Shown: positions 2,363 to 26,615 of the stretch, piece by piece
Position numbering within the stretch: position 1 is the first letter of the stretch
Layout: every line of letters starts with the position of its first letter
Virus record (IMG/VR): IMGVR_UViG_3300042922_000346
Location: 650-64,649 of that record
DNA: 64,000 nucleotides
Strand: one strand, 5' to 3'
Source: a virus
Position numbers and translations under genes: made by a program
The notes under the pieces: generated by a model
The model's database searches: none
Seen by the model: only the letters and a program-made list of their open reading frames with translations
Told to the model about the DNA's origin: nothing

Positions 2363-3079
2363 ATGAATAATATTCACGTTCAAGACGTATGTGAGGTTTA
2401 TTTAAAAGACCTTTCAGACCCAACCAAAGTATTCTTCTTTGGTATCACAATAAGTAATGAAGTAACTGCACAAATACAGCAAGAAGTTTTACGTGGCGGT
2501 ATAAGTAATGTGGTATATGGCGTTGCTCAAAGCAATAAAGAAATGAGTTTTAACGTTAAGACATTGTTCCATAATGATGACCTATATTCTATCCAAATGG
2601 GAAGTAATTTTTCTAGTGGAAGTACTATAATTCAAAAGTCTGAACAAGGCACTGTTAGTGCTGGTAAAGTTACAATAACAGGAACACCACAAGGAACTGC
2701 TTGTGTGGTAATTGATGGCTTAGGTAAACAATATGTGGGAACTTATGCAACAGGGCAAGTTACTATAACTACTCCACCATCAGATGGTACTGTAGTAACA
2801 GTAGTATATCCTTCAACTGTAACAGCACAGATATTAGATTTAAACAGTAAAACATTCCCAAAAAATTACTATGTAGAATTACACACAATAGCTTGGGATA
2901 TAGACAAAAATACTGTAGTAGCTGATATTTATTGGGTATTTGAAAAAGCAATGCCAAACGGTGGATTAACCGCTTCATACGAAGCTGGCAAAGGTAACGG
3001 CGACGATATTACATTTACAGCACAATGTAAAGTAGGTTCTAGTTCATTTGGTAAATATTTAACAGTAGCTAGGGCATAA
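2363..3079 (+). CDS. putative major tail protein (Thr/Gly/Val-rich, Ig-like C-terminal region)
   Basis: RBS AAAGGAGAGA; T/G/V-rich beta-rich composition typical of siphophage major tail proteins; followed directly by a strong intrinsic terminator as highly expressed tail-tube genes often are. Confidence 0.4.
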   Translation: MNNIHVQDVCEVYLKDLSDPTKVFFFGITISNEVTAQIQQEVLRGGISNVVYGVAQSNKEMSFNVKTLFHNDDLYSIQMGSNFSSGSTIIQKSEQGTVSAGKVTITGTPQGTACVVIDGLGKQYVGTYATGQVTITTPPSDGTVVTVVYPSTVTAQILDLNSKTFPKNYYVELHTIAWDIDKNTVVADIYWVFEKAMPNGGLTASYEAGKGNGDDITFTAQCKVGSSSFGKYLTVARA

Positions 3080-3080
3080 T

Positions 3081-3112
3081 AAATAGGGGTTTATCCCCTA
3101 TTTTATTTTTAA
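3081..3112 (+). terminator. rho-independent terminator/attenuator after putative major tail protein
   Basis: AAATAGGGG-tttat-CCCCTATTT 9-bp stem followed by TTATTTTT. Confidence 0.7.
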
Positions 3113-3125
3113 AGGAGGAAAGGTT

Positions 3126-3662
3126 ATGAAGTTAAGTCAATACAAATCAATTAATGTAGTTAGAAAATTGCAGTACGTAAATGGTGAAGCGATTATAAAA
3201 AACATCGTTGATTTTAATGGAGAAATAGGATTTTATGCTACAGACATAGACAGATTGACAAAGATTAATGAGGAAATAATTCAAAAAATAGAAAAAATAT
3301 CAAATGACGAAATTACTTATAAATTTATACCGTATTTATGTGATGTGGAATGTGACATAAGTTTTGAGGAATTTACAGAAATGCTTGAACATCCAACCCA
3401 ACAATTCATAGATTTTATGACATTAATAGCTAAATCTATGAATGATATATTTGAGATGTTGGATTCTATAGCCAACATGTCAGAAACCACTGAGAATGTA
3501 CAAGTTACAGTTAATAGAATACAGGAGAATATACCAGAAACAATTATATCTGAGGAAGAACAGCTTGATGAATTATATAGTGCGTTAAGTAAAACTTCTG
3601 ACAAAGATATTAGAAAGTCTTTAATACGTCAAATTACAGAATTAGAAAATAAAGAAAAGTGA
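3126..3662 (+). CDS. hypothetical acidic protein (178 aa)
   Basis: RBS AAAGGAGGAAAGG 5 nt upstream; highly acidic, D/E-rich. Confidence 0.5.
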   Translation: MKLSQYKSINVVRKLQYVNGEAIIKNIVDFNGEIGFYATDIDRLTKINEEIIQKIEKISNDEITYKFIPYLCDVECDISFEEFTEMLEHPTQQFIDFMTLIAKSMNDIFEMLDSIANMSETTENVQVTVNRIQENIPETIISEEEQLDELYSALSKTSDKDIRKSLIRQITELENKEK

Positions 3663-3668
3663 TGATTT

Positions 3669-4115
3669 ATGGCGAAACAAATATTGTCTTACGATATAGA
3701 CAAGGAAATTAGCGAAGAATTTAATAATTATTTATACAAAATTGCAGACCAAATACAAGAAATAATGATAAGAGCAATTATCCTATCTGTATATCGAAGA
3801 TATAATCCTGTAGAATATAAAAGAACGTATGCATTAGCACAATGTGTATCCGTAAAAGTTGATACAACAAGGAATGTGTTATTAGCATATATAGACGAAG
3901 ATAAACTTGATTATTTTTCTGCGGTAGATGGTAGAGCGGTCACACCATTAATTCCTTATATCATAGAAGAAGGACATAATGATGACTATCCATATGTTTT
4001 TAATATGTATCATCATTATCCTGCTAGACGTTATTTAGAAATGGCTAGAGATATGATATTGACACAACTTGGTATAGATGTGGAAATAGTAAAGAACCCA
4101 CCCCAATATGTGTAG
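3669..4115 (+). CDS. hypothetical protein (148 aa)
   Basis: ORF packed 6 nt after previous stop. Confidence 0.5.
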   Translation: MAKQILSYDIDKEISEEFNNYLYKIADQIQEIMIRAIILSVYRRYNPVEYKRTYALAQCVSVKVDTTRNVLLAYIDEDKLDYFSAVDGRAVTPLIPYIIEEGHNDDYPYVFNMYHHYPARRYLEMARDMILTQLGIDVEIVKNPPQYV

Positions 4116-4134: not shown

Positions 4135-4527
4135 ATGAGCGAGAATGAAAATGTTGTATATGAAAAAATCGCAAATGTAGGTGCTAGAATAGATAGGGTT
4201 GAAGAATCAATGGATAAAATAAACCAAAGAATGGATGAATTTGATAAAAAAACAGGTGCGTTAGAACATGAACTATCTAATAGACTTACCAAGATGGAAA
4301 CTAAATTTGATTTCTTTTTAGATATAACTTCTAATAAATTAGATAATTTAGATAAAAAAATGGATAAGTTTATGATAGATGCAAATCAAACAAAGGTTCA
4401 AACACCACCCCCATCCCAAGCGGATACTTTTAAAGAGTGGGGTTTTAAAAAAGGTATGCAAATTCTTGATACCGCTATTTATGGTGGAGTATTATATGCA
4501 ATAGCAAAAGGATTAAAATTATTTTAA
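4135..4527 (+). CDS. XhlA-like coiled-coil protein with C-terminal transmembrane helix (lysis-associated)
   Basis: RBS AAGGAG; N-terminal heptad coiled coil, C-terminal hydrophobic segment ILDTAIYGGVLYAIAKGLKLF; sits immediately upstream of amidase and holin-like genes as xhlA does in PBSX-type lysis cassettes. Confidence 0.45.
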   Translation: MSENENVVYEKIANVGARIDRVEESMDKINQRMDEFDKKTGALEHELSNRLTKMETKFDFFLDITSNKLDNLDKKMDKFMIDANQTKVQTPPPSQADTFKEWGFKKGMQILDTAIYGGVLYAIAKGLKLF

Positions 4528-4546
4528 AAAAGAAGGTAGGGATAAT

Positions 4547-5512
4547 ATGAAAATAGGATGGAGATATGGACATTTAAAAAATGTAGACCAATCTGCTAAT
4601 GGAATATTATTAGAATATGAATTTAATAGATTTTATGGTGCTAGAGTAGTTGAATATTTACAGAAGGATGGAAATGAATTAATTGATTGTACCCCTCCAG
4701 AATCAACTGCTACAATGGCAGATAGTTTAAATTATGGAATAAAGAAAGCCAATGATAATAAAGTAGATTATTTTGTAAGTTTTCATGGTAACTGTTTTAA
4801 TGGAGAAGCTAATGGTTCAGAAGTTATATGTGGTTCTCAAGCAGGAATAGATATAGGAAATAGAATTACAAGTAATTTAGAAAAATTAGGATTTGTTAAT
4901 CGTGGAGCAAAAATGGATACTAGAGGATTAGCTGAAATAAAGAAAACAAATATGACGGCTAATATTATAGAACCATTATTTGTAGATAGCAGAAAAGATA
5001 TTGATTTATTAGATGCTGTAGGAGTAGATTTATTTGCTAGAGCGATAGCAGAAGGTATTGTTGGACATGTTATAAATGTAGTAGAACCAACTCCAGAACC
5101 AGAACCAATTCCAGAAGATAATTCTGTGTTGGATGCTCAACGTAAATTAAATAAATTAAAATTTTACGGAGCGAATGGATTAAGACTTGATGAAGATGGA
5201 ATCATGGGAGCGAACACTATGTTTGCAATAAGAGAGTTTCAATATATAACTGGGTTAAGTATTGACGGTGTTCTAGGTGAGACAACAAAAGGAGCAATAA
5301 ATCATATCCTTAATGATAGACCAATGGTATCTATAACAATTAATAATAATGAGGTTATTGCTATAAGATATTTACAATGGAGATTAGGAATAATTTTTGA
5401 TGGTATATTTGGTAATGGTACAAGGAATGCAGTTATTGGATTCCAATCCAGAAACGGATTATATCAAGATGGAATTGTTGGTAATGATACATGGAAAGTA
5501 TTATTAGATTAG
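4547..5512 (+). CDS. N-acetylmuramoyl-L-alanine amidase (Amidase_3 family) with two C-terminal PG_binding_1 repeats; endolysin
   Basis: Motifs GH..E, DYFVSFHGNCFNGEANGSEV, NRGAKMDTRGLAEIKKTNMTANIIEPLFVDSRKD match the Amidase_3 zinc amidase pattern; two DG(I/V)xGxxTxxAIxxFQ repeats match PG_binding_1; Pro/Glu linker PTPEPEPIPE. Confidence 0.75.
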   Translation: MKIGWRYGHLKNVDQSANGILLEYEFNRFYGARVVEYLQKDGNELIDCTPPESTATMADSLNYGIKKANDNKVDYFVSFHGNCFNGEANGSEVICGSQAGIDIGNRITSNLEKLGFVNRGAKMDTRGLAEIKKTNMTANIIEPLFVDSRKDIDLLDAVGVDLFARAIAEGIVGHVINVVEPTPEPEPIPEDNSVLDAQRKLNKLKFYGANGLRLDEDGIMGANTMFAIREFQYITGLSIDGVLGETTKGAINHILNDRPMVSITINNNEVIAIRYLQWRLGIIFDGIFGNGTRNAVIGFQSRNGLYQDGIVGNDTWKVLLD

Positions 5513-5522
5513 GAGGGTTATT

Positions 5523-5750
5523 ATGGAAACCTCAAAAAAATTAACTTGGGTAATGACTATATTCTTTATTTTTGCTGTTATAGGAATAGGATTAACAGAT
5601 GCTTTATTAAAAACTAATTTATCATATTTATTAGATTATATTATGCCATTAGAAACAACTGTTATGGTAGCATATTTTGGTAAAAGCGGTGTTGAAAATT
5701 TCCAAAAAATAAAGAGTTCTGACAGTACGAGTATTGACCAAACTAAATAA
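5523..5750 (+). CDS. holin-like small membrane protein (75 aa)
   Basis: Two hydrophobic helices then charged tail; immediately follows the amidase. Confidence 0.5.
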   Translation: METSKKLTWVMTIFFIFAVIGIGLTDALLKTNLSYLLDYIMPLETTVMVAYFGKSGVENFQKIKSSDSTSIDQTK

Positions 5751-5766
5751 TGTGAGGTGAAAATAC

Positions 5767-6135
5767 ATGGATTTAACTATAATATATGTGTTATTAATAA
5801 TTATCATAGTTATTGGTTTAAGTTGGTTAAGTAAATATTTAAAGGATAATGATATAGTAGATAGCGAAGATTTACTATTTGCTATGACGATACTAGATTT
5901 ATCAATGAAAATAATAGATGAATTAAATCTTAAAGACGAAGATAAAATAAAGGATATTGCTGAGATAGTTAAGGAATCTGTAGATTATATTAATAAGAGT
6001 ATGAGTGAGGAAGCAGATAAAGAAGTTTGGGCAATAGATTATGCATATAAATTATGTGAAGAAATGGATATAGAATTAACTGATAACAGAAAAGAAATAA
6101 TTATACAGTTAATTGGATTACAGCTTAAAAAATAA
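5767..6135 (+). CDS. small membrane protein (122 aa, N-terminal TM helix, acidic C-terminus); second holin or antiholin candidate
   Basis: N-terminal LTIIYVLLIIIIVIGLSWL helix; last gene before a strong terminator. Confidence 0.45.
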   Translation: MDLTIIYVLLIIIIVIGLSWLSKYLKDNDIVDSEDLLFAMTILDLSMKIIDELNLKDEDKIKDIAEIVKESVDYINKSMSEEADKEVWAIDYAYKLCEEMDIELTDNRKEIIIQLIGLQLKK

Positions 6136-6140
6136 CAAAC

Positions 6141-6186
6141 GAGGATATTACAAACAAACTTGTGATATCCTCTTATTTTTTTTGTT
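6141..6186 (+). terminator. rho-independent terminator closing the lysis cassette, upstream of the tape-measure gene
   Basis: GAGGATATTACA-aacaaact-TGTGATATCCTC 12-bp stem (1 mismatch) followed by TTATTTTTTTTT. Confidence 0.75.
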
Positions 6187-6234
6187 AGGTTGATAAAATT
6201 TGAATTTTATAAAAATTTAAATCATCGAACATAT

Positions 6235-6268
6235 ACGAAAAACGAAGAAAAACGAAGGAAAACGGAGA
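6235..6268 (+). repeat. three tandem ~10-bp direct repeats ACGAAGRAAA upstream of tape-measure start
   Basis: cgaaaaacgaagaaaaacgaaggaaaacggag read directly. Confidence 0.5.
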
Positions 6269-6295
6269 TTATAAAAGCAGAAAGGGTGATGAAAG

Positions 6296-9200
6296 GTGTT
6301 AGGAGTAAAAGTTGGTCTGGAGTCGAAAAGTGTCGCTCAAGTTAAATCGGAATTTATAAAATTATTAGATTCATTACAAGAAAGAGCAAATAAATCAGTA
6401 ATTAAAGTCGATGTAGACTTAAAAAATATGAGAAATGTTAATGCTGTTTTAAATGAAACAGTTAGTGGATTAAAAAAACTTAGTACTCAAACTAAAGATA
6501 GTATTAAAACCACTAACCAATTATCAAGTGCATATAATAATTTTGCTAAGACTCAAAAGGCAATTAACCAAACATCTACTACACGTGCTAAAGTTGATGT
6601 GGGTATTCCTCAATTAACAGAATGGTTTTTAATTAGACGAGGTATTCAACAAGTTATAGACCAAATAGCAAATGGATTTAAATTTATAAATGATTTTAAT
6701 AAATCTTTAACAGAAATAAGTATTGTTACTGGTAAAAATCAAGCATCTATAAATGCTTTAGGTTTAGAATATAATAAATTAGCAAAAGAAATGTCTGTAA
6801 CTACTCAAGAAATAGCAAAAGCATCTGTTGAATTTTATAGACAAGGTCTTGCTCAAGATGAAGTTAATAAAAGATTAGTATCTACAACTCAATATTCTAA
6901 AGTAGCAAATTTACAATTTGAACAGTCTGCTGAAATATTAACTTCAACGGTAAACTCAATGGAATTAGATATTAATCGTGTAACTGATGTATTTACATTC
7001 TTAGGAGATGCTACAGCTACAGGTGCAGATGAAATAGGTATTGCATTCCAAAAAGTTGGAGGTAGTGCATCTGCATTAGAAGTTCAATTTGAAAAAGTTG
7101 CATCATGGATTGCTACATTATCATCTAAAACACGTGAAGGTAGTGAAGCTATTGGTAACTCAATAAAATCATTAATGTCAAGATTTCAACAATTACGTGA
7201 ACGTGGTTTTGCAGAAGAGGACGGAACAAAAGTTAACCAAGTTGCTAAAGCATTAAATGAAGTAGGAATACAGGCTATGGATGCTACTGGCAATTTTAGA
7301 AACTTTGGAGATGTTATGGATGAACTTGGATTAAAATGGGATTCTTTAGACGGAAGAGAAAAATCTTATATATCTACCACTGTTGCAGGAGCATATCAAC
7401 AAAATAGATTCTTGAACTTAATGGAGAACTATAGAGAGTCTTTAGATTTATATTCTCAATCATTAGATAGTGCAGGAACAACTCAAAATAAATTTAATAT
7501 ATGGTTAGATTCTACAGAAGCACATATTAATAAATTACGTGCTACAACAGAAGGATTATGGCTAAAGGTATTTAATAGTGATGTTATAAAATCATTTATT
7601 GATACATTAAATGTATTAGTTGGTGGAATAGATAGCGTAGTTACTAAATTTGGAGGACTTCCAACATTATTTGCAACGATTGGTGTTACATTCGGAGCAT
7701 TAAAAAAGAATTGGTCTTTGTTCGGTGTAGAAATAACTAAGACAAATACAGCAATGTCAGATGGAAGTATAGTTACACAAAAATATGCTGGGTTCACAGG
7801 TATATTAGGTAATTCCTTAAATAAATTAATTGATAAAGAAATAAAATGGTATAATCAACAAAATATTGGCAATGAAGTATCTAGAAGTAGCTTATCTTTA
7901 TTTGACCAATTAAAATTTGCGTATAATGGAGTTGCTAGTGGAATATTAAATATGTCAGCTAAACAAGGTATTGCAATATTAACTACTGGTGCTTTAAAGG
8001 TAGCTTCTATTGCTTTAAATACTGCATTAACAATGGGTATTGGTTTACTTGTTGGAGCAGGAATACAAGCATTAGTAAATTATATAAATAAAACAAAAGA
8101 GTTAAAAACACAAGTTGATAATTTAACTCAAACAACTCAATCCAATATGCAAAATAATAATTCTAATATACGAACTTTGACAGCCTTAGAAGAAACTTAT
8201 AATAAGCTTACTCTTCAAACTAGTTTGACTAAAGACGAACAACAGGAATTAGTAGATATACAAAATCAAATTGCTTCTATTGCTCCAGATGTTGTTAGTG
8301 GATATGATGCTCAAGGTAATGCTGTTATTAGATTAAAAGACGGAGTTAAAGGATTAGTTGAAGAATTAAAAAAGAAAAACAAAGAAGAACAAGATAGTCT
8401 CGTAAGTGGATATGGCGATGCTAGTAAAGTATATAATAAAGAAACAGGTAAAGCACAAACTAAATTAGATAAATCAAATGAACAAAAACAATTTTTACTA
8501 GACCAAATAAAAACAAGCGAAGAATTAATGAGTAATTATGAAAAACTAGGTCAAGCTAGTTATGTAGATAAATACAAAACTGTAATAGCTGATTATGGCA
8601 GACAATTAAAAGAGGTAAATGGTGATATAGTTGAGCAAGAAGCTATTATTAGGTCAGCTACAGCAACAATGCAACCATTTAAAAATGCTTTTTTAAGTGT
8701 AGCAGATGGATATGATTTATTAAGTGAAAAGCAAAAGAAAATAGCTTTTGAACTTACTTCTGCATTAGACCCTAAGAAATATTCCCCAGAATCATTTCAA
8801 GAAATTGTTACTTTTGTAAGTGATAAAAAATTTACAGATACATTAAAACAATTAGAGTCTTTAAATGTAACGAAAGGAACTATCTCTGCAAAAGAATTTA
8901 ATGAGGAAATAATTAAATTATATAATGAATTAAGTAATCTTACTAGCGGTAAAATATCTGCTGATGCTTTGATGAATATGTTTAATATAAAACCAATTGA
9001 GTTAGCAACAGCTTCTATGAGAACTTTTGAAAAGATTCAAGAAGATGTAATTAATACGATGATTGAAGTAGGTAATCAACTTAAAGACGTAAATACATTA
9101 TTGCTTAATCATAAGGAAAATGGTGAGTGGGATTATGCTACTATTTCAAAATTAGCAGAAGTATATCCAGAACTTTTAAATGCTATGGGTGACGAAGAAA

Positions 9201-11950
9201 AATTAACTCAAGCATTAATTAATATAAAAGAAAAACTTGTTGGTTCTACAGATACTCAAATAAATGCAGAAATAGAAGCGGTAAAAGCACAATTAGATGC
9301 TTATGGTATTAATGTAGATGGATTCAAAACAGCAGAAGAAGCAAAAACAGAAATTGCTAAAGAAGGAGCAATAAACAGATTAAAAATATATGAGCAAGAA
9401 CAAAAGGCTATTGAAGAAACAATTAAAACATTAAACCCAGAATTAGCAGAAGACCAAACAAGGTACTCTCGACTAATGAAAAATCATAGTGTTTATGGTG
9501 CTAATATAGAAAGTATAAATAGTGCTATAAATAAGTGGGCAAGTTTAGATGATTTAAAAGCAAGAGCATCCAGTATTTCTTCTAGTATTGGTAATTCTAC
9601 TAATAAATCTAGTAAAAGTGAAACCACTATTTATGAAAGTAAACTAGATGGAGCAGATGAATTTTTAGCAGTTCTTGAAGATATAAATTTTGCTTTTTCA
9701 AAACAAGACAGTGTAATAAAAGAAATTGATGATAAAATAAAATTGTATAAAGCTATAGGTACTAATGATGCTATGACTAAGTCGATAGAAGAACAAAATA
9801 ATTTATATTCAGAACAAGCTAATCAAATCAGTTTGTTAAGTGGTGGATTAAACACCATGAATCAACAAAAGGATACTATCGCCCAAGCATTTAAATTAAA
9901 TTTTAGTTCTATGGTAGGAGCAGATTTAAATAATTGGTCAAAATCTGATTTTACAAATATGTTCCAAGAATTATTCCCAACAATGACCACTACAGACAAA
10001 AATAAAGCAGATGAATATAATCAAAGTAAACAGTTATTTAATAGATTAACAGATGATTGGTTCAAATATTTGGATGCCATAGAAAGTACAAAAAATAGTA
10101 TTAGCGAAGTTCAAACAGATATGTTAACTACTATGAGTGAGAGATACGATATATACTTTAAAACAGTAGACCAATTATTTAAGAATCATAAAAATAACAT
10201 TGGAGTTCTTGAAAATGAATTAAAAGCATTGGATGACACAGACTTTGATGGTAGAGAAGCTAAAATAAAACAAATTATCGGAGAAACAGAAAAATATAAA
10301 TCTTCTATTACGGATATTATATCTCAATTAAAAGAGAAACAATCAACACTAGAAAGTGGAAGTCATGAATGGGGTATTATAAACGAGGAAGTTGAAAAGA
10401 ACGAATCTTTATTAGCTGATGTTAATTCTCAAATTAAAGATACTACAAAAGAATTAAAAGAAAACACCATTAAGGAATATGATGATTATTTTGATAAAAT
10501 AAGTAAAAATATAGATAATATAAAAAATAAACTTAGTGGAATTAATAAAGATAGACAACTTTTAGATGATTCAGATTATGATTCTCAGTTAGAGTTAATT
10601 AATGAATTAGTTGATGAAACAGCAGTATATAAAAATACTATTGAATTATCACTGAACGAATTAAAAGGTAAACAGTCTCTTTTAAAAGTAAACAGTGATG
10701 AATGGATTAAAATAAATGACGAAGTATTAAAATACGAGGATTTATTGAAAGATGCTAAAATAGAATTAAAGGATGCTAAAGATTTAACTAAGGAATTAAG
10801 AGAAGAACAATCTAATACGGTAATGGATATGCAGGATAAAATAGTGGATGCTTTAAGAAAACAATATGAAACAGCTAAAGATGCTGAACTTGAAGCTATA
10901 CAAAATAATTCTGATAAAAAAATAGAAATTAAAGAAACCGAAATAGATAGACTCAAAGCTGAACTTGAAGCTATGAAAGATGATACTCAAGGTAAAAAAG
11001 ATACTCTTGCAAAGTTACAAAAGGAATTAGCTTTATGGAAAGAAGATACGGATAGTCCATATGCTAAAAAAAGAGTACTAGAATTAGAACAACAAATTAA
11101 AGAAAAACAAAAAGAATTAGCTATTGATGTTAAAGAAAATGAAATTAAACAAGCGGAAGATGCATTAGATGCTATTCGTGAGAAAGCAGAAGATGAAAAA
11201 GAAATTATTGAGAAAAAATATAAATATTTACTTGATGAACAAAGATTGTATTCTCAAGCAACATTTATGATGACCAATAATTCTCAAGAACAAATCTTAT
11301 CATTATTATTATCTCAAAACACCAAATACCAAACTATGGGAACTACATTAGGAAAATCATTCTCAGATGCTATGTTAGCTGAAATCAATAAAGTAAAAAA
11401 TGCTTTAACAGCATTAGCTGGAATGACTTATAGTGGGTTAGTTGATAATGCAACTACTGGATTAAGTGGTGGAGGACGAGGTCTTAATGGTTCTTCAACA
11501 ACACAAAGTAGTTCTTCAAGTAATAGTTCTTCTAGTGGCGGAAGTGTAATTGTCCCTCCAAGTGGAGTTGTTATACCATCCACGTATCAACAGTTGAAAA
11601 ACTTAGATTCTGTATTTGGTAACGGACAAAGATTTAAGAGCGGTGGAGAAACAGGAGAATGGGGAAGTTGGGGTAAATTAGCTATATTAGATGAAAAAGA
11701 AAGAGTTTTAGATGCAAGTCAAACAAAAGCTTTTAATCATTTAGTTTACAATATATTACCTTATTTTAATAACACATCAACATTAGGATTAAATAAACAA
11801 CAAGCAATGAACACCTTTAATGCTCCAGTAATTCAAAATGATATTACTATAACAAATAATACACCTTTTGATGTAAGTAATAATATTGATAATCTTAACA
11901 AGGCAATAAAGGAAGAGTTAAAAATAGGTGGATATAAAATAGCATTATAA
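6296..11950 (+). CDS. tail tape measure protein (1884 aa), GTG start
   Basis: Very long mostly coiled-coil ORF; N-terminal region GIAFQKVGGSASALEV...LGIQAMDATGNFRNFGDVMDELGLKWDSL matches the conserved tape-measure core pattern; followed by Dit-like gene; upstream in-frame TGA forces GTG start at 6296. Confidence 0.8.
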   Translation: MLGVKVGLESKSVAQVKSEFIKLLDSLQERANKSVIKVDVDLKNMRNVNAVLNETVSGLKKLSTQTKDSIKTTNQLSSAYNNFAKTQKAINQTSTTRAKVDVGIPQLTEWFLIRRGIQQVIDQIANGFKFINDFNKSLTEISIVTGKNQASINALGLEYNKLAKEMSVTTQEIAKASVEFYRQGLAQDEVNKRLVSTTQYSKVANLQFEQSAEILTSTVNSMELDINRVTDVFTFLGDATATGADEIGIAFQKVGGSASALEVQFEKVASWIATLSSKTREGSEAIGNSIKSLMSRFQQLRERGFAEEDGTKVNQVAKALNEVGIQAMDATGNFRNFGDVMDELGLKWDSLDGREKSYISTTVAGAYQQNRFLNLMENYRESLDLYSQSLDSAGTTQNKFNIWLDSTEAHINKLRATTEGLWLKVFNSDVIKSFIDTLNVLVGGIDSVVTKFGGLPTLFATIGVTFGALKKNWSLFGVEITKTNTAMSDGSIVTQKYAGFTGILGNSLNKLIDKEIKWYNQQNIGNEVSRSSLSLFDQLKFAYNGVASGILNMSAKQGIAILTTGALKVASIALNTALTMGIGLLVGAGIQALVNYINKTKELKTQVDNLTQTTQSNMQNNNSNIRTLTALEETYNKLTLQTSLTKDEQQELVDIQNQIASIAPDVVSGYDAQGNAVIRLKDGVKGLVEELKKKNKEEQDSLVSGYGDASKVYNKETGKAQTKLDKSNEQKQFLLDQIKTSEELMSNYEKLGQASYVDKYKTVIADYGRQLKEVNGDIVEQEAIIRSATATMQPFKNAFLSVADGYDLLSEKQKKIAFELTSALDPKKYSPESFQEIVTFVSDKKFTDTLKQLESLNVTKGTISAKEFNEEIIKLYNELSNLTSGKISADALMNMFNIKPIELATASMRTFEKIQEDVINTMIEVGNQLKDVNTLLLNHKENGEWDYATISKLAEVYPELLNAMGDEEKLTQALINIKEKLVGSTDTQINAEIEAVKAQLDAYGINVDGFKTAEEAKTEIAKEGAINRLKIYEQEQKAIEETIKTLNPELAEDQTRYSRLMKNHSVYGANIESINSAINKWASLDDLKARASSISSSIGNSTNKSSKSETTIYESKLDGADEFLAVLEDINFAFSKQDSVIKEIDDKIKLYKAIGTNDAMTKSIEEQNNLYSEQANQISLLSGGLNTMNQQKDTIAQAFKLNFSSMVGADLNNWSKSDFTNMFQELFPTMTTTDKNKADEYNQSKQLFNRLTDDWFKYLDAIESTKNSISEVQTDMLTTMSERYDIYFKTVDQLFKNHKNNIGVLENELKALDDTDFDGREAKIKQIIGETEKYKSSITDIISQLKEKQSTLESGSHEWGIINEEVEKNESLLADVNSQIKDTTKELKENTIKEYDDYFDKISKNIDNIKNKLSGINKDRQLLDDSDYDSQLELINELVDETAVYKNTIELSLNELKGKQSLLKVNSDEWIKINDEVLKYEDLLKDAKIELKDAKDLTKELREEQSNTVMDMQDKIVDALRKQYETAKDAELEAIQNNSDKKIEIKETEIDRLKAELEAMKDDTQGKKDTLAKLQKELALWKEDTDSPYAKKRVLELEQQIKEKQKELAIDVKENEIKQAEDALDAIREKAEDEKEIIEKKYKYLLDEQRLYSQATFMMTNNSQEQILSLLLSQNTKYQTMGTTLGKSFSDAMLAEINKVKNALTALAGMTYSGLVDNATTGLSGGGRGLNGSSTTQSSSSSNSSSSGGSVIVPPSGVVIPSTYQQLKNLDSVFGNGQRFKSGGETGEWGSWGKLAILDEKERVLDASQTKAFNHLVYNILPYFNNTSTLGLNKQQAMNTFNAPVIQNDITITNNTPFDVSNNIDNLNKAIKEELKIGGYKIAL

Positions 11951-12793: not shown

Positions 12794-13414
12794 ATGGAAT
12801 TAATAAAAAATATTGTTATAGATATAGATGGTGGTACTCTTACTAAAATAATTGCAAAACAAAGTGATGATAAAAGTAGAGTGTTACAATTTTCAATTGT
12901 AAATAGTGGCATACCAATTAATTTATCTGGACATACTGTTAAAATATATGCAAGTAAACCAGATGGATATCCTGTATTTAATAATGCAACAATATTAGAT
13001 GCTGTTAATGGTGTAATATCTATAGTGTTGACTAATCAGATTTTAGCTGTAAGTGGAGATGTTCAATGTGAATTAGTTATTTTAAATAATAATAATACCG
13101 TTATTTTATCTACTAAAATATTTGTATTGAGTGTTTTACCATGTGTTAGAAATGACCAAGCAATAGAATCATCTAGTGAATTTACAGCTTTACAGAAAGC
13201 ATTAGAAGATGCAGACTTTTTAATTCAAAAAGTAGAGTTAATTGATGATGAAGTTGATGTTATAATATCTGAAATGAACGACAAATTAGATTTAGCAAAT
13301 GAACAAATTGATAATATGATTTCAAGATATGAAAGTGTAACGTATATATATGTTGCTACTACTGCTCCATCTACTGGTGTATTAAGTGGTCACTTTTGGT
13401 ATAAATTAATTTAA
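12794..13414 (+). CDS. baseplate protein with BppU-like N-terminal domain and coiled-coil C-terminus
   Basis: IVIDIDGGTLTKI...LQFSIVNSGIPINLSGHTVKIYASKPDGYPV...DAVNGVISIVLTNQILAVSGDVQCELVIL follows the BppU_N pattern. Confidence 0.45.
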   Translation: MELIKNIVIDIDGGTLTKIIAKQSDDKSRVLQFSIVNSGIPINLSGHTVKIYASKPDGYPVFNNATILDAVNGVISIVLTNQILAVSGDVQCELVILNNNNTVILSTKIFVLSVLPCVRNDQAIESSSEFTALQKALEDADFLIQKVELIDDEVDVIISEMNDKLDLANEQIDNMISRYESVTYIYVATTAPSTGVLSGHFWYKLI

Positions 13415-13426
13415 GGAGGAAAGGTT

Positions 13427-15937
13427 ATGGCAAATTATAATTTTCAAATAACTCAAAGAAATTCAACAAATACAGCTTGGGATAATATGTATCCTGCAAC
13501 AAAAGCAGAAATTGTAAATACTGCGGATGGTGTTACATTAGAATCTCTTTTGGGTAAAACAGATAAACAAACAGCTACAATAGCTAGAGGTATTAATAGT
13601 TTAACTGTGCCACAAGCAAGTACTGCTAGTGTTGGCATAACTGGTAGAAATACAATAAATTTATTAGGTATAGCTGGTAATTGTGAAACTTTAAGCAATT
13701 TTTATAGAGCTTCGGGTACTGGATTGATAAGTTTAGATTCTACTAATAAATTATTTGGAAATAACAGTGTTAAAATGACTGTCGAATCTGGTGGTAATGT
13801 CGTATACGCAATAAATAACTATAACATGGTACAAGCTGATAAATATTATTGTCTCAGTGCCTATTTTAAAAATGTTAGTGCGGTTGAATGTTTTGTGGTT
13901 ATGAATGGTATTACTGGTAGTAATGCAAATGATATATCATCGTTTAAGAGAAGTATTTTGAAAATATCTCCAGCACAGATAGAAGTACCGCTAGATAATA
14001 GTAAAAATAGATTTAGAATATGGATAAATGGTTCTAATGGAACTTATGCATATGTTGATGGAGCTATGCTTATAGAAATAACTCAAGCAGAATATAATGA
14101 CCCAAACTATGTACCACCAGAATATGTAGATAGTTTTCAACCAGTAAGAAATCCTTATATTGTTAGACGAGGTAAAAATTTAGTAAGAAACGGTAACGGC
14201 GAAGAAGGAATTAGTTGGTGGAGTTTGAGTTATGGTGCAGTTAATCCAAGATTTGAGAATGGGTATTTTGTAGTTGAAGATGACTCTACTCTATATAATC
14301 GAGGGTACAATCAAGTAGTTCCTGCAAAACCAAATACTCAATACACATTTTCTGTAATTGGAAAGCGTATTACTTCAAATGCTAGAGTTCAAATATATGA
14401 AGTAGACGAAGATAATCTAAGTTCATCTGGAATCCTACTCGGTAATACAGTGCTTACAAATACTGTGGATACAAAACTGTCTGTAACAGGAACTACCAGT
14501 GCTAATGCAAAGAGGATACGTGTTGCAATTATATCCGGTTTTACTGTAGCTGATGTTGGTATAGCATACTGTAAAGAAGCTATGCTTGTTGAAGGTTCAT
14601 CAACTCCCAGTATATACGAACCATATAATGAAGATTATTTATTCTTTGAAACTGATTTATATGATGGAGAAAACTTACAAGAGGTTGATGGTAAATATAT
14701 TAGATATAAAAAATGGAATAAAATTACTTTAGATAATAAATTTACTACAACAATAAGTTCGTTTACACCAGTTAGGAAAAATATTAGAATATCTGATTGT
14801 CTATATAATGTAAATACTGTTATAAATGGAGCATTAGTATTAAATTGTATTAAGTATGATGGTAAAATATTAAAACTAGATACTTTAACAGATATAGACC
14901 AATTTACAACCGATAGACCAAATGGAATAGTATGGTTATCTGTTTCAAATAATGAAACTGGATGGGGAGAAAGTTATACTCCAACATCTGATGAAATTAA
15001 TGCTTATTTATTGGGTTGGGTAATGAGTGATGCAAATGGTAATCATTATTCTGGTGGACAAAAATTTTGGACGAGAATATATTGTGGTATAGGTACTAGT
15101 ACAGCATCAACAAGTTTCGGTATGAAAGTAATTGGAGCATATACAAACACTTGTCCTACAGTAATGAATGACCAAGGATATACTCCATATGAAATGCATT
15201 ATCAATTAGCAAATCCAATAACAGAAGAAGTCAAAACAGAAGGTTCTTTGTCTTTAGTTGAGGGAATTAATAATTTTGAAGTCGGAGAAGGAATTATAAT
15301 TAGGGAGAATATAAGAGAATTTGGTTCATGGAGTAATGGTATATATCTTGGAGATACAAGCACAACAGAACCTCAATTCAAATATAATCCTTATAAAATA
15401 TTGAATTTATATAAAAACAATTATGAAGATATTGGGAAATGGTATAGTTATTATAGTCCTACCAATATCCAAGGTTTAGATAAACTCACTACAACTAAAA
15501 ATAATTATGATTCTAATGCGGTTTATACTACTACTTATATAATGATAGATAAATATAAATTCTCTTCATCTATTCCAAATATTACTTTATATTATAATAA
15601 TACTTTAAGACAAGCAACAAATGTCTTATTAGATAAAGCAACAGATATATTAAATGAATCAAATATAAATAAATTAGCTATATATAATTCTGAATATATG
15701 GAGAATTTTAAATCAGATTCTATGAAAGGTACTATAGTAATACCTACATTAGATAGTAATGGTAATGTTACTAAAATCGACCATAAAAGAGTGAGTGATG
15801 GAGCTATTTTAAGAACAGATATATTTGATTATAGTATACTTAACCAAATAATAGAAACAAGAAAAGATGCTTTAATAAATAAAACAGTAATAAAATATAC
15901 GTATCATTTAGATACGTTACAAACGGAGGTTTTATAA
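13427..15937 (+). CDS. tail protein / putative receptor-binding protein (836 aa)
   Basis: RBS AAGGAGGAAAGG; large ORF in tail-tip module. Confidence 0.5.
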   Translation: MANYNFQITQRNSTNTAWDNMYPATKAEIVNTADGVTLESLLGKTDKQTATIARGINSLTVPQASTASVGITGRNTINLLGIAGNCETLSNFYRASGTGLISLDSTNKLFGNNSVKMTVESGGNVVYAINNYNMVQADKYYCLSAYFKNVSAVECFVVMNGITGSNANDISSFKRSILKISPAQIEVPLDNSKNRFRIWINGSNGTYAYVDGAMLIEITQAEYNDPNYVPPEYVDSFQPVRNPYIVRRGKNLVRNGNGEEGISWWSLSYGAVNPRFENGYFVVEDDSTLYNRGYNQVVPAKPNTQYTFSVIGKRITSNARVQIYEVDEDNLSSSGILLGNTVLTNTVDTKLSVTGTTSANAKRIRVAIISGFTVADVGIAYCKEAMLVEGSSTPSIYEPYNEDYLFFETDLYDGENLQEVDGKYIRYKKWNKITLDNKFTTTISSFTPVRKNIRISDCLYNVNTVINGALVLNCIKYDGKILKLDTLTDIDQFTTDRPNGIVWLSVSNNETGWGESYTPTSDEINAYLLGWVMSDANGNHYSGGQKFWTRIYCGIGTSTASTSFGMKVIGAYTNTCPTVMNDQGYTPYEMHYQLANPITEEVKTEGSLSLVEGINNFEVGEGIIIRENIREFGSWSNGIYLGDTSTTEPQFKYNPYKILNLYKNNYEDIGKWYSYYSPTNIQGLDKLTTTKNNYDSNAVYTTTYIMIDKYKFSSSIPNITLYYNNTLRQATNVLLDKATDILNESNINKLAIYNSEYMENFKSDSMKGTIVIPTLDSNGNVTKIDHKRVSDGAILRTDIFDYSILNQIIETRKDALINKTVIKYTYHLDTLQTEVL

Positions 15938-15938
15938 T

Positions 15939-17693
15939 ATGGATATAATGACTTATAATAAGATAAATGAAGTCGCTCAAAATATCAATGGTGGGAATGT
16001 TTTTAAGACATATCCCACTTATTCATTTAATCCACCTGTAGTTGGACAACCTTGTGCCTTATATCAAGATGGTATCATTGCTAGTGCGCAAGTTCGTCCG
16101 ATGGGAAGATATGCTAGATTAGCTAATGCTATAAGTAATTATGCTACATTTAATTCAAGTATTACTCCAACATGGCATCCAAGAATGAATGAATATAATA
16201 TGGATAGGGTTAGTACAGGTAAATATATACACAGATATTTTCGAGAGGGTACAATGTTTTGTAAAATAGTTACAGATAACGGTAATTCAATCACACAAGG
16301 AACAGAATTAAATTTAGGTTTATCCAGAAATAATGTATTATTTGGAGATAATGATTATATGATTTATAGTAAATTATTGAGTAGTTCTGTATATGTTATA
16401 TTTTATAAAGGTATTAGTACTCAAAATGGCACTATTCGGGCATTGGTTATAACAATATCTGGAACAACTTGTACTTTAGCAAATACGTATGATATTGTTG
16501 TTACACAATCATCTGCATCAAAAGATACATTTGATATAGAATGTAATGCAGATAACACTAAAATAATTTGTGTATATAATAAATCTACCGCATATAACAC
16601 TTATGCAATTGTAATTACAGTAAGTGGTTCTACTTTTTCATTGGGTACGGAGGTATTAGTCCATACTAAAGTTACGTATAATGATATATATCCTTCAATT
16701 ATAAAATTAAATTCAACATTATTTGTTATAGGATGTCAACAAGATAATAATCCAAGAAATAGATATTTTATACCAGTTGCTATAAATGGAACATCTCTTA
16801 CTTTAAATACTGCATATAGTATATCATCTTGGATAGGTGCAAATAAAATGACTTATTATGCAGATGGATATTTTTTAGTTAATGGAGGAACGACAAGTAA
16901 CACTATTACAATGCTTAATTATAATGGAACTAGTTGGAGCACAATATCTACTAAGGTAGTAAGTAATAATACAATGTCTTCCTATACTAATCTAATGTTG
17001 GATAACGATGGTATATCTACGAATAATGTTGTAAGAATTACAGATATAAACAAAACAGGTATATCAACTGTAAAAGTAAATGCAGATTATACATTAGGTA
17101 CGGTATATAACACCATACATGGGGTTTATTCCCAAGGTTCAATTGGAATTGTAAATACTAGTTATGGAATGATGTTATTTGTAAATAGATGGAATCATCC
17201 TACATTAACTGGATTAGATTATGAGTATTATCCTATAGATGGTAATAGTGGATGGAGTGGATTATCTGCAATGCAAACATTGGGTAATATGTCTGAATAC
17301 CCAAATAAAGGTAATCTTTCTTTTGTAGTAGGGTGTTCATATGATTCATCAACGGATAGAATAATGTTGGCTATTGCAACTTTAACTTCTGTGTATAGTG
17401 ACGATACTAGTTATTATTTAATGACAACTCACTTTGAAGTATTTAATCAAACTGAGTTAACAATAAGTAGAGTAAATATAAAATCTGTAGCAGGATTATA
17501 TTTAGGAAATGGTAAGGTATTATTAAAAGGCATTGGAACTACATCTGGCTTAATACCTTCATTAAATTATTATAGTCATCCAGATACAGGATTATTTAAT
17601 TATGATAGTACTACAACAAATGGTTCTCCTGCTATATATGTTGGTCAAGCATTAAGTACTACTGAATTATTAATTAATGAATTTATTATATAA
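15939..17693 (+). CDS. tail fibre-like protein (584 aa; Ser/Thr/Asn/Gly-rich), XkdV-like by position
   Basis: Composition typical of fibre/RBP; followed by XkdW/XkdX-like small genes. Confidence 0.45.
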   Translation: MDIMTYNKINEVAQNINGGNVFKTYPTYSFNPPVVGQPCALYQDGIIASAQVRPMGRYARLANAISNYATFNSSITPTWHPRMNEYNMDRVSTGKYIHRYFREGTMFCKIVTDNGNSITQGTELNLGLSRNNVLFGDNDYMIYSKLLSSSVYVIFYKGISTQNGTIRALVITISGTTCTLANTYDIVVTQSSASKDTFDIECNADNTKIICVYNKSTAYNTYAIVITVSGSTFSLGTEVLVHTKVTYNDIYPSIIKLNSTLFVIGCQQDNNPRNRYFIPVAINGTSLTLNTAYSISSWIGANKMTYYADGYFLVNGGTTSNTITMLNYNGTSWSTISTKVVSNNTMSSYTNLMLDNDGISTNNVVRITDINKTGISTVKVNADYTLGTVYNTIHGVYSQGSIGIVNTSYGMMLFVNRWNHPTLTGLDYEYYPIDGNSGWSGLSAMQTLGNMSEYPNKGNLSFVVGCSYDSSTDRIMLAIATLTSVYSDDTSYYLMTTHFEVFNQTELTISRVNIKSVAGLYLGNGKVLLKGIGTTSGLIPSLNYYSHPDTGLFNYDSTTTNGSPAIYVGQALSTTELLINEFII

Positions 17694-17719
17694 GAAAATA
17701 TAAGAAAGAAGGAATAATA

Positions 17720-18109
17720 ATGTTAAAAAAATTAATTACATTAAAACAAATAAATAATATAGTTATAGGTATGCATAGTGTTGCTAAAAAAGAAGGAGAC
17801 GATATCGTTACTGGAGATGATATTGTCTATAGTAATATTGGTGATATCTTAGACATTATAGCAATAGATTCAGATGATTTACCAAGTGATTTTGAATTAT
17901 CAAAATATTGCTATACTGAAAATGATGGATTTTATTTAAATCCAGATTATGTAGCACCACAACCACCAATACCATCTTTAGAAGATGAAATAAGGAAATT
18001 ACAAGCAGAATTATTTTTAAAAGACAGTATAATTGAACAGCAATCGGTAAGAATTGATTCAACAGAAAGTGCTATTATGATGCTCATGGATATAACCATG
18101 GGTATGTAA
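17720..18109 (+). CDS. XkdW-like small tail-associated protein (129 aa)
   Basis: Position between fibre gene and XkdX-like mini-gene; acidic. Confidence 0.35.
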   Translation: MLKKLITLKQINNIVIGMHSVAKKEGDDIVTGDDIVYSNIGDILDIIAIDSDDLPSDFELSKYCYTENDGFYLNPDYVAPQPPIPSLEDEIRKLQAELFLKDSIIEQQSVRIDSTESAIMMLMDITMGM

Positions 18110-18141
18110 TATATATTTAAAAATTTATAGGAGGAATGTTT

Positions 18142-18297
18142 ATGTACGGATTTATTTTAAACATGTGGATTATGAGGAAATTAACAGCACAGAAGGTTCA
18201 GTCTTATGTACCATTTTATATTACTCAAGAGGAATGTGACATGATATTAGCAACACCACAAAATCCATTACCAACAGTTACAGAAACAGAAGTATAA
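18142..18297 (+). CDS. XkdX-like mini-protein (51 aa), below the ORF-track length cut-off
   Basis: RBS TAGGAGGAA 6 nt upstream of ATG; KLTAQKVQSYVPFYITQEECDMIL resembles XkdX family consensus; followed by terminator. Confidence 0.45.
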   Translation: MYGFILNMWIMRKLTAQKVQSYVPFYITQEECDMILATPQNPLPTVTETEV

Positions 18298-18308
18298 CAA
18301 ATATAAAA

Positions 18309-18346
18309 TAAGGGAGAAAGACGTCTTCTCCCTTATATTTTATAGA
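18309..18346 (+). terminator. rho-independent terminator/attenuator between the two tail-tip modules
   Basis: TAAGGGAGAA-agacgtc-TTCTCCCTTA 10-bp stem then TATATTTTAT; only 14 nt to next start, so likely a leaky attenuator. Confidence 0.65.
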
Positions 18347-24531: not shown

Positions 24532-25518
24532 ATGGAAGATATGAATAAATTTAAATTAGGTGCAATACCTTCTGGAAAAGACGAAAGAGATTTTAATATA
24601 TCTAAATTAGTGGCTACAGTAAACGTATTTCCAAGTGAATTTTGTTTAGATTTAGATGGAATAGAAATACAAGACCAAGGAGAGGTAGGGTGTTGTGTTG
24701 GAGAGTCTTTAGCATATACAAGATTTTTAACAGAGAAGAAACAAACAGCAAAAACAGATTTATTTAGTGTAGGATTTATATATGGTACAAGAGAAGAAAC
24801 AGATTATCAAGAAGATGGAATGCGACCAAGAGAAGCATTAAAAAATCTTCAAAAATATGGTACTGTACTTCATAAAGATTTCCCTTATTTAGAAGAAGTT
24901 CCAAATATAATTAATAGAGTAAGACAACAAAATAATGTATTATTACCAAAAGCAGAACCTTTTAGAATTAGTGCTTATGCAAAATTAGATAATGAATTTT
25001 CAATAAAAAATGCGTTAATGCAAATTGGAGCAGTAACAACAATGATTGCTGTAGATTGGGCATTTATGTGTACAGGTAGTGACGGATTAGTTCCTACTAA
25101 TTTAGTATTTAATCCATATATGGGATTCCATCAAATTACTATAGTAGGATGGAGAGAAGATGGAAAATGGATATGTTTAAATAGTTGGGGAAAAGGATGG
25201 GGAGATAATGGTATAGTGTATTTAGATAAGAGTAAAACATTAGAATCATGGTCATTAACAGATACTATTGTTCCACAACCAGACCCAGAACCAATCACTA
25301 AATGGTATAGAGTACAAGTAGGTGCTTATCATAATTTAGAATATTGTTTAGCTTTTCAGCAAGAATTAAAAGACAAAGGTTTAGAAACTTATTTAGTTAA
25401 GATAGATGAATGGTATAAAGTACAATTAGGAGCATATCAAAACAAAGATTATTGCTATGCGTTTTTAGCTAAAGTACACGAAATGGGATACACTGATGCA
25501 TTTGTAGTATATTATTAA
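24532..25518 (+). CDS. lysin: papain-like (C1-type) cysteine peptidase domain fused to tandem SPOR repeats (ORF track begins at 24499; ATG at 24532 preferred)
   Basis: QGEVGCCVGES (Cys), GFHQITIVGW (His), LNSWGKGWGDNGIVYL (Asn/Trp) in papain order; PQPDPEP linker; C-terminal WYRVQVGAYHNLEYCLAFQQEL...WYKVQLGAYQNKDYCYAF is a duplicated SPOR-like motif; RBS AAAGGAGAAAGG before 24532. Confidence 0.6.
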   Translation: MEDMNKFKLGAIPSGKDERDFNISKLVATVNVFPSEFCLDLDGIEIQDQGEVGCCVGESLAYTRFLTEKKQTAKTDLFSVGFIYGTREETDYQEDGMRPREALKNLQKYGTVLHKDFPYLEEVPNIINRVRQQNNVLLPKAEPFRISAYAKLDNEFSIKNALMQIGAVTTMIAVDWAFMCTGSDGLVPTNLVFNPYMGFHQITIVGWREDGKWICLNSWGKGWGDNGIVYLDKSKTLESWSLTDTIVPQPDPEPITKWYRVQVGAYHNLEYCLAFQQELKDKGLETYLVKIDEWYKVQLGAYQNKDYCYAFLAKVHEMGYTDAFVVYY

Positions 25519-25655: not shown

Positions 25656-26615
25656 ATGGTTAAAATGCCAGAAAGAAGTAAAAGAATTGAAACTTATGAT
25701 AAAAATAAGCTTTCTTTAATAAATGCACAAACATTACAAGATTATAGAAGATATAAGATAGATATGGAGATTAGAGAATTATCCCCAAAAACAGTTTATA
25801 ATTATGAATTAGATTTGTTCCAATGGTTTACTTATATTTATGAGAATCAAGGTAATATTTGTGTTAGAGAAATAATTGAAGATGATATTGTTGAGTTCTT
25901 ACATTTTTGTAAAACACAAGGTAATAATAGTAGAAGAATGAAAAGAAGAATGTCCTCTATTAGTGCTTTTTATAAATTCTTGAGAAAGAAAAAACTAGTT
26001 AAAGAAAATCCTATGGAAATGATTGATAGACCAAGAAAAGATACAGATATAGTTGAGCAAACTTACCTATCTCAAGAACAAGTAGCTTTAATGAGAGATA
26101 AATTAATTGAAAATAAAGATACTCAATTAGAACTTTACGCAAATTTATCCTTAAGTACTATGGCAAGAGTAAATGCAATTTCAAATATAAGATGGGAACA
26201 AATTGACTTTGATAAACGTAAAATTGATAAGGTATTAGAAAAAGAACAAAGATACGTTACTTTAAGATTTAATGAAAAATGTAAAGATTTATTTTTACAA
26301 TTAAGAGAAGAAAGAAGGAAAAACAATATTATAACTGAATATGTATTTAGTAGCTTTTATGGTGGACAATATAATAAAGTTAGTAATGTTACGTTAAATG
26401 ATTGGTGTAAAAAGATTGGAGAAATGATTGGAGTAGAATCTTTACATCCTCATGATTTCCGTCATACTTCTGCTACTTTATTAAAAAATTCTGGTATGCC
26501 TTTAGAAAGTATTAGTAAATTATTAAATCATATGGGTACGGATGTAACTTTAAAATTTTATATAAAAGAAGATGAAGAAAAGATACAACAAGAAAAAGAT
26601 AAATATGATTTTTAA
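25656..26615 (+). CDS. int: tyrosine site-specific recombinase (phage integrase / Xer-like)
   Basis: N-terminal SAM-like core-binding region; catalytic box HPHDFRHTSATLL (HxxR) and C-terminal LKFY tyrosine region; RBS AAAGGATGG. Confidence 0.8.
   Translation: MVKMPERSKRIETYDKNKLSLINAQTLQDYRRYKIDMEIRELSPKTVYNYELDLFQWFTYIYENQGNICVREIIEDDIVEFLHFCKTQGNNSRRMKRRMSSISAFYKFLRKKKLVKENPMEMIDRPRKDTDIVEQTYLSQEQVALMRDKLIENKDTQLELYANLSLSTMARVNAISNIRWEQIDFDKRKIDKVLEKEQRYVTLRFNEKCKDLFLQLREERRKNNIITEYVFSSFYGGQYNKVSNVTLNDWCKKIGEMIGVESLHPHDFRHTSATLLKNSGMPLESISKLLNHMGTDVTLKFYIKEDEEKIQQEKDKYDF

Follow-up and report, generated by a model that had tools for sequence, protein, structure and literature searches.

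The 64,000-nt stretch of viral DNA analyzed here (positions 650 to 64,649 of IMG/VR record IMGVR_UViG_3300042922_000346, below called the window) carries a compact group of lysis-type genes at 4135-6186, between a homologue of the SPbeta tail-assembly gene yomN and the gene for the tape-measure protein. We consider it likely that this segment is the working lysis cassette of the phage, located at a lineage-fixed position in a variable slot of an SPbeta-like siphophage genome. As judged from gene order and divergence in relatives, the placement is inherited within the clade and not a one-off acquisition. A preliminary description of this DNA had placed an Amidase_3 endolysin, two small membrane proteins and a terminator before the tape-measure gene, and this was borne out, with all coordinates confirmed. 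The location of a lysis cassette between tail-assembly genes and the tape-measure gene was also correct, whereas in SPbeta itself the blyA-bhlA-bhlB genes follow the tail genes.

The cassette comprises four open reading frames (ORFs), all on the plus strand within 4135-6135: 4135-4527 (130 aa), 4547-5512 (321 aa), 5523-5750 (75 aa) and 5767-6135 (122 aa). They are separated by 19, 10 and 16 nt, and each ORF is preceded by a Shine-Dalgarno sequence. From its profile matches, the 321-aa protein (4547-5512, plus strand) is a predicted member of the Amidase_3 endolysin family, in which a Pro/Glu-rich linker connects a CD27L-type Amidase_3 catalytic domain to two PG_binding_1 repeats. Scores were above the cut-off both for the catalytic domain (PF01520; 63.2 bits versus 27) and for the cell-wall-binding module formed by the two repeats (87 bits versus 23), and the PHROG endolysin family phrog_435 matched with E = 1.7e-55. 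The top match among solved structures was the CD27L endolysin of a Clostridioides difficile phage (3QAY, E = 6e-20). Alignment to 3QAY and 9JZO shows that the protein keeps GH (residues 8-9), E23 (or E25), H80 in SFHGN and E142 in IIEP, which, going by CD27L and PlyPSA, we take to be the zinc-binding His/Glu/His residues and the catalytic Glu. No N-terminal hydrophobic segment or signal peptide was found in the amidase.

Compared with CD27L of phiCD27 and other Amidase_3 endolysins of Clostridium phages, the catalytic domain is 34-41% identical to the Clostridium phage enzymes, whereas the wall-binding part with its two PG_binding_1 repeats is unlike that of the CD27L group. The closest full-length homologues (39-42% identity, with the same domain architecture) are chromosomal autolysins, which suggests exchange between host autolysins and phage lysins. 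Chromosomal homologues at L010:10001-10939 and L012:10001-10972 lie in a conserved host locus with genes for a V-type ATPase, HPr kinase and CorA. An Amidase_3 gene is also present at 8953-9702 of a contig of Clostridium phage D-1873 (L020), a toxin-converting phage of Clostridium botulinum. Its product is 41% identical over the catalytic domain, and the gene directly follows a series of virion structural genes, not a tail-fibre block.

The two ORFs downstream of the amidase gene encode small membrane proteins that we regard as holin candidates. The 75-aa protein (5523-5750, plus strand) has a transmembrane (TM) segment at about residues 8-29, a weaker hydrophobic segment at 36-50 and a charged C-terminal tail. 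It thus has the generic features of a holin, being small, with a TM segment and a charged tail and encoded near an endolysin, and could be a holin or an antiholin. It had no family match in Pfam or NCBIfam, and its gene was not seen in the relatives examined, being absent from contigs L015, L017 and L018. The 122-aa protein (5767-6135, plus strand) has an N-terminal TM segment (residues 2-21, hydropathy 3.05) followed by an acidic C-terminal domain, with 27 Asp/Glu versus 14 Lys/Arg in the protein, and its gene begins 255 nt past the lysin stop codon. This layout fits Holin_LLH (Phage_holin_6_1, PF09682), a family with a single N-terminal TM segment and a long hydrophilic C-terminal part, encoded near a lysin. 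The window protein differs from the family in being strongly acidic and in its weak match (E = 0.001), which stays under the family cut-off. The gene at the same position in L015 encodes an above-threshold Holin_LLH protein (34.1 bits versus 24.9), and in L017 and L019 proteins of 104-108 aa with an N-terminal TM segment are encoded after the lysin. No BLAST similarity was found between the 122-aa protein and a 141-aa protein of contig L011.

SPbeta, which belongs to the same broad phage group, has a comparable set in yomD-blyA-bhlA-bhlB, in which the late genes likewise encode an N-acetylmuramoyl-L-alanine amidase and two small membrane proteins that are holin-like. Apart from the weak LLH match of the 122-aa protein, the small proteins of the window had no holin match in Pfam or NCBIfam, a comparison made through profiles and not directly with BhlA and BhlB. 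The alternative that the products of 5523-6135 are tail chaperones did not hold, since the chaperones are encoded upstream, at 3126-3662 and 3669-4115 (YomN).

The first gene of the cassette (4135-4527, plus strand) encodes a coiled-coil protein of 130 aa whose extreme C-terminus is moderately hydrophobic; no Pfam model covers it. An exhaustive search found 24 homologues among 1.84 billion representatives. The extreme C-terminus is conserved across this family, with C-terminal hydropathy between 1.05 and 2.25. A lysin gene lies directly downstream of the family gene in seven of the eight family contigs looked up; the remaining contig, L022, ends first. The gene had earlier been labeled a PBSX-like xhlA, a label that the analysis does not support. 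The match to XhlA (PF10779) reached 16.9 bits versus a cut-off of 34.7 and covered the coiled coil only, and among 16 sequences scanned the window copy (E = 0.007) and a repeat-rich coiled coil (P0053) were the only ones that matched at E <= 0.01. The family fails the XhlA model, and the likeness is one of architecture and gene neighborhood only: an N-terminal coiled coil, a C-terminal anchor, and an adjacent amidase and holin candidates. We therefore describe it as a putative, previously undescribed family that resembles XhlA in layout and neighborhood only, and by analogy we propose that the 130-aa protein is a lysis accessory or regulator. As proposed here for the window, PBSX of Bacillus subtilis combines an amidase endolysin with a holin and a coiled-coil accessory protein that associates with the membrane. 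The PBSX order is xhlA-xhlB-xlyA, whereas that of the window is accessory protein, amidase, membrane proteins, and the position in the genome differs too. A profile of the 130-aa family showed no similarity to the 107-aa coiled-coil protein whose gene has the equivalent place in the L011 cassette.

The surroundings of the cassette assign the window to a large SPbeta-like siphophage, of which it is a fragment. Precomputed Pfam matches and pairwise comparisons identified homologues of YomW, YomV, YomU and YomN upstream of the cassette in the SPbeta order, and a PhageMin_Tail tape-measure protein downstream. The GC content of the window is 28.5%, and the host would be a low-GC, probably clostridial bacterium. 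A 14.8-kb contig identical to a stretch of the window is present in a second dataset.

Relatives with the gene order of the window were recovered by means of the 130-aa coiled-coil family. In L018 and L019, the order is YomV, YomU, a gene at the chaperone position, YomN, coiled-coil protein and lysin; in L017, L021 and L023, it is YomN, coiled-coil protein and lysin. A terminator and then the tape-measure gene continue the window-like order in L015, L017 and L018. Contig L015 has a coiled-coil protein (48% identity), an Amidase_3 lysin of which the wall-binding half is 53% identical, a Holin_LLH protein, a terminator and the tape-measure gene. Measured against the window, the coiled-coil proteins share 30-48% identity, the YomN proteins 29-44% and the tube proteins 51-57%. 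The coiled-coil protein has thus diverged to an extent like that of the flanking structural genes, which argues for vertical inheritance and for an old arrangement.

Within this conserved order, the lysin itself is mosaic. Its PG_binding_1 half is kept in L015, L017 and L018 (48-53% identity), with a different C-terminus in L019, and the catalytic domains have been swapped among the relatives, which carry CD27L-type Amidase_3, classical Amidase_3 or Amidase_2 domains. Endolysins usually evolve in this way, exchanging the catalytic domain and retaining the wall-binding half. The 134-kb SPbeta-like contig L011 has genes for a lysin, a membrane protein with a coiled coil and a protein with an N-terminal TM segment as a unit elsewhere in the tail region, which indicates that the lysis unit is not tied to the tape-measure gene. 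No convincing flanking direct or inverted repeats or recombination sites were found at the cassette, and there was no GC anomaly. The suggestion that the cassette is a recently acquired module is therefore not supported: at least five other divergent contigs (L017, L018, L019, L021 and L023) have the same order, and the cassette lacks flanking repeats and a GC anomaly. The preliminary description had itself proposed the synteny comparison, naming a shared order in related genomes as the outcome that would speak against its proposal; this comparison was carried out, and the order is shared.

In other SPbeta-like phages, the same place after the YomO/YomN homologues is occupied by a tyrosine recombinase, usually accompanied by regulators or other cargo genes. 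This was seen in SPbeta (yomM-yomJ), a Staphylococcus SPbeta-like phage (gp050), Psychrobacillus phage Perkons (ORF192-195) and the IMG/VR contigs L006 and L007. In SPbeta, yomN and the tape-measure gene yomI flank a slot with the recombinase gene yomM and with yomL, yomK and yomJ, in which stem-loops are annotated. As read from these genomes, the content of the slot varies across the SPbeta-like group, and hairpins bound it in SPbeta, Perkons and the Staphylococcus phage. In contrast to these phages, the window has lysis genes in the slot and its recombinase after the tail genes, so that, compared with SPbeta, the two appear to have traded positions. The window recombinase is an Xer-like tyrosine recombinase encoded at the end of the tail module (25656-26615, plus strand); it is 52% identical to the L011 recombinase and only 22-23% identical to the YomM-type slot recombinases. 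Related zinc-ribbon proteins (33-36% identical), encoded at L007:6418-7749, L011:7996-9543 and L022:107-1261, are a recurrent cargo near a recombinase or coiled-coil gene, and those of L007 and L022 have DUF4379/CapR Pfam matches.

The cassette is closed by an intrinsic terminator or attenuator at 6141-6186 (plus strand), a hairpin with a T-run that consists of a 13-bp perfect stem, a 6-nt loop and then TTATTTTTTTT. The predicted folding energy is -20 kcal/mol (z = -5.5), and none of 200 shuffled sequences was as stable. A gap of 109 bp separates the hairpin from the tape-measure gene. The earlier claim that a real terminator lies between the cassette and this gene thus stands, but the terminator is not special to the cassette. 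A hairpin followed by a T-run also lies shortly before the start of the tape-measure gene in L015, L017, L018, Perkons, SPbeta and the Staphylococcus SPbeta-like phage, whatever the content of the slot; no clear terminator was found before the tape-measure genes of L006 and L007. Because the hairpin has the same place across relatives, transcription of the tape-measure gene poses the same question in the wider SPbeta-like group. The tape-measure leader of the window contains three copies of AAACGRAG spaced 10 bp apart (6240-6267, plus strand; starts at 6240, 6250 and 6260). Seven copies are present in the window versus 1.4 expected, and the corresponding gaps of L015, L017 and L018 do not share the repeats. 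Within the gap 6187-6295, no strong promoter of the sigma-70 type was listed by a consensus scan. In SPbeta, 37 late genes, structural and lysis genes included, depend on the phage RNA polymerase YonO, and RNA-seq suggested a single late operon starting upstream of yonK (PMC5467207). No RNA-polymerase domain that would mark a YonO candidate was found in the ten largest minus-strand ORFs of the window, and the region expected to hold YonO lies outside the contig. By analogy with SPbeta, we infer read-through with attenuation across 6141-6186.

The tape-measure protein downstream of the cassette (6296-11950, plus strand, GTG start) has 1884 aa and a PhageMin_Tail domain. In its core it shares 54% identity with the Perkons protein and 24% with SPbeta YomI; a blastn match to Perkons is an ordinary alignment of the two tape-measure cores. 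We considered whether the cassette proteins might represent a split tape-measure N-terminus and rejected this, as the N-terminus of the window protein aligns with those of L015, L017 and L018 from the first residues. In L017 (2882-7455), the tape-measure gene is broken within PhageMin_Tail by a GIY-YIG/NUMOD3 homing-endonuclease ORF (4292-4948), and the downstream ORF resumes at profile position 93, probably reflecting an intron or a split gene. A hydrolase is embedded in the tape-measure protein of four of the five relatives with a recombinase in the slot: SPbeta (SLT and M23), the Staphylococcus phage (lysozyme2 and M23), Perkons (lysozyme2) and L006 (glucosaminidase). No peptidoglycan-hydrolase domain was detected in the complete 1884-aa protein of the window.

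A further wall-directed protein is encoded after the tail genes, at 24532-25518 (plus strand). Its papain-like Peptidase_C1 part, in which the Cys, His and Asn motifs are intact, is joined to a SPOR domain, which is an uncommon combination among phage wall enzymes. No small membrane-protein partner of this gene was found within 23.2-26.7 kb. The gene for the nearest phage homologue, in Thermoanaerobacterium phage THSA-485A, directly follows that for a GH25 endolysin. The C1-SPOR protein and the THSA-485A homologue may thus be accessory wall enzymes, and a function as wall or septum hydrolase is possible. SPOR domains bind glycan strands stripped of their peptides, which is the product of an amidase, and a two-step action of the amidase followed by the C1-SPOR protein is conceivable. 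The proposal that the phage carries two lysis systems, with a second lysin at 24532-25518, did not survive this analysis: the protein combines Peptidase_C1 and SPOR, is not a classical lysin, and is encoded without a membrane partner. Also, no second pair of an endolysin and a small membrane protein was found among the plus-strand structural genes from 2363 on and the ten largest minus-strand genes, a survey that left out the ORFs at 141-2345 and the smaller minus-strand ORFs.

Several observations weigh against reading 4135-6186 as the working lysis cassette. The 75-aa protein stands as an orphan; the LLH score of the 122-aa protein is below the cut-off (19.8 bits versus 24.9), and a word-indexed search of a 5.8-billion-protein database found only two homologues of it; and the C-terminus of the window's 130-aa protein is only moderately hydrophobic (1.26). 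In L018 there is no membrane-protein gene between lysin and tape-measure gene, so that an in-cassette holin is not universal. The 64.6-kb window contig represents about half of an expected genome of ~130 kb, and a second holin-endolysin pair or a YonO gene could lie outside it. Finally, the missing hydrolase domain in the tape-measure protein leaves room for an entry role of the amidase. Some of these points would fit a situation in which the endolysin is indeed the amidase, whereas neither the 75-aa nor the 122-aa protein is a holin; these could be superinfection-exclusion or other membrane proteins, and the coiled-coil protein or the product of a gene outside the window would act as holin. 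The lack of homologues of the 75-aa protein in the relatives examined, the sub-threshold LLH score of the 122-aa protein and the absence of both small genes at this position in L018 agree with it, as does the fact that the coiled-coil protein is the sole partner present in every contig looked up. We nevertheless regard it as unlikely, since the 122-aa gene has the position of the above-threshold LLH holin gene of L015, L017 and L019 encode N-terminal-TM proteins of 104-108 aa after the lysin, and small size, TM segment and charged tail fit general holin features.

A different role for the amidase, as an enzyme loaded into or working with the tail during entry, in replacement of the hydrolase domain of other SPbeta-like tape measures, is distinctly improbable. 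It would explain why the tape measures of SPbeta, the Staphylococcus phage, Perkons and L006 embed a hydrolase and that of the window has none, and why the adjacency of coiled-coil protein, lysin and tape-measure gene is kept across deep divergence, and it agrees with the missing holin gene in L018. However, a free-standing 35-kDa protein with a catalytic and a wall-binding part has the format of an endolysin, its gene has membrane-protein genes as neighbors, with an LLH holin after the L015 lysin, and its closest full-length homologues are chromosomal autolysins. The L011 unit lies away from the expected tape-measure position. The complementarity between slot and tape measure is also imperfect and concerns very few genomes, as L007 has no tape-measure hydrolase, yet has a recombinase in the slot and no cassette. 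A broader scenario is very doubtful, namely that the coiled-coil protein and lysin became fixed beside the tape-measure gene by taking over wall piercing, for entry or for entry and exit, and that the clade exchanged the slot recombinase for lysis genes within that change. Recent acquisition of the module, or its being one of two redundant lysis systems, would be in line with the location of blyA-bhlA-bhlB in SPbeta proper, the slot cargo that differs between phages, the second wall-targeted enzyme at 24532-25518 and the 75-aa gene that is unique to the window. This is highly improbable, because the order is shared by at least five divergent contigs with divergence like that of the flanking structural genes, so that the synteny of L017-L019 largely refutes it. 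The absence of flanking direct or inverted repeats and of a GC anomaly points the same way. Furthermore, the C1-SPOR gene lacks a membrane partner in 23.2-26.7 kb, and its THSA-485A homologue is an add-on beside a GH25 endolysin.

If 4135-6186 is indeed the working lysis cassette, late transcription of the head and tail genes would continue through its four genes, as the tight spacing and the separate ribosome-binding sites indicate. The amidase, which has no N-terminal hydrophobic segment, would accumulate in the cytoplasm, while one or both of the small membrane proteins (the Holin_LLH-like protein of 122 aa and the 75-aa protein) would accumulate in the membrane and open it at the time of lysis. 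The 130-aa coiled-coil protein may assist or time this opening in the way that XhlA is said to assist or time XhlB in PBSX, an analogy that does not imply homology. The released amidase would then bind the wall through its two PG_binding_1 repeats and cut the MurNAc-L-alanine bond. The hairpin at 6141-6186 may serve as an operon joint that most likely reduces the transcription reaching the low-copy tape-measure and tail-tip genes, or halts the host polymerase. Late transcription would pass through it, in the manner proposed for SPbeta with its single late operon driven by YonO.

Among the genes upstream of the cassette, 2363-3079 (plus strand) encodes the major tail tube protein, a YomU homologue (Pfam YomU_Tube; 29% identity to SPbeta YomU; phrog_2729, E = 1e-24), and is followed by a hairpin terminator at 3081-3103. 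The tube protein was used in a tblastn search against 30 SPbeta-group phages; a scan of viral and metagenome contigs with the tube alignment gave no match in either. The acidic 178-aa protein encoded at 3126-3662 (plus strand) is assigned to the position of the tail-assembly chaperone YomO on the basis of its location. It is 32-35% identical to its equivalents in L017, L018 and L019, and similarity to SPbeta YomO was undetectable. The YomN homologue (3669-4115, plus strand; Pfam PF27376) is encoded by the last conserved tail-assembly gene before the slot and is 26% identical to SPbeta YomN and 29-44% identical to the proteins of L017, L018 and L019. A word-indexed search for YomN homologues yielded two matches only, and a YomN scan of viral contigs none. 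No match was obtained by tblastn of the YomN, 130-aa and 122-aa proteins against 50,697 phage records, nor with a reduced alignment of the 130-aa family against viral and metagenome contigs; a locus scan of a genome collection returned one uninformative 6.5-kb contig.

Downstream of the tape-measure gene, a receptor-binding/fibre gene block (12794-18336) is located between the genes for Dit (11967) and a Tal-like Prophage_tail protein (18360). It encodes a BppU_N protein, proteins of 836, 584 and 129 aa and a weakly XkdX-like 51-aa ORF (18142-18297). A bidirectional hairpin at 18308-18336 closes the block, which makes it a second terminator-ended cassette inside the tail operon. The minus strand (26638-63907) encodes DNA polymerase III alpha, NrdD, a GyrA/GyrB-like topoisomerase, RecD2 helicase, primase, a NAMPT-like phosphoribosyltransferase and a PcfJ-like protein. 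The gene for NrdD, an anaerobic ribonucleotide reductase, suggests an anaerobic host for the phage.

For a little-known branch of SPbeta-like phages, lysis genes in the middle of the tail genes would thus be the standard arrangement, with an uncharacterized accessory family stably embedded in it. The junction between yomN and the tape-measure gene emerges as a conserved hairpin-bounded slot that lineages fill either with a recombinase and cargo or with lysis genes. Where lysis genes are expected after the tail fibres, by annotation pipelines or by readers, such a cassette in SPbeta-like phages of anaerobic Firmicutes will be mislabeled or overlooked. The 130-aa coiled-coil, C-terminally anchored family is a candidate for a new class of lysis accessory or holin-like proteins, and lysins that keep their wall-binding module and swap the catalytic domain may help in the design of enzybiotics against clostridia.

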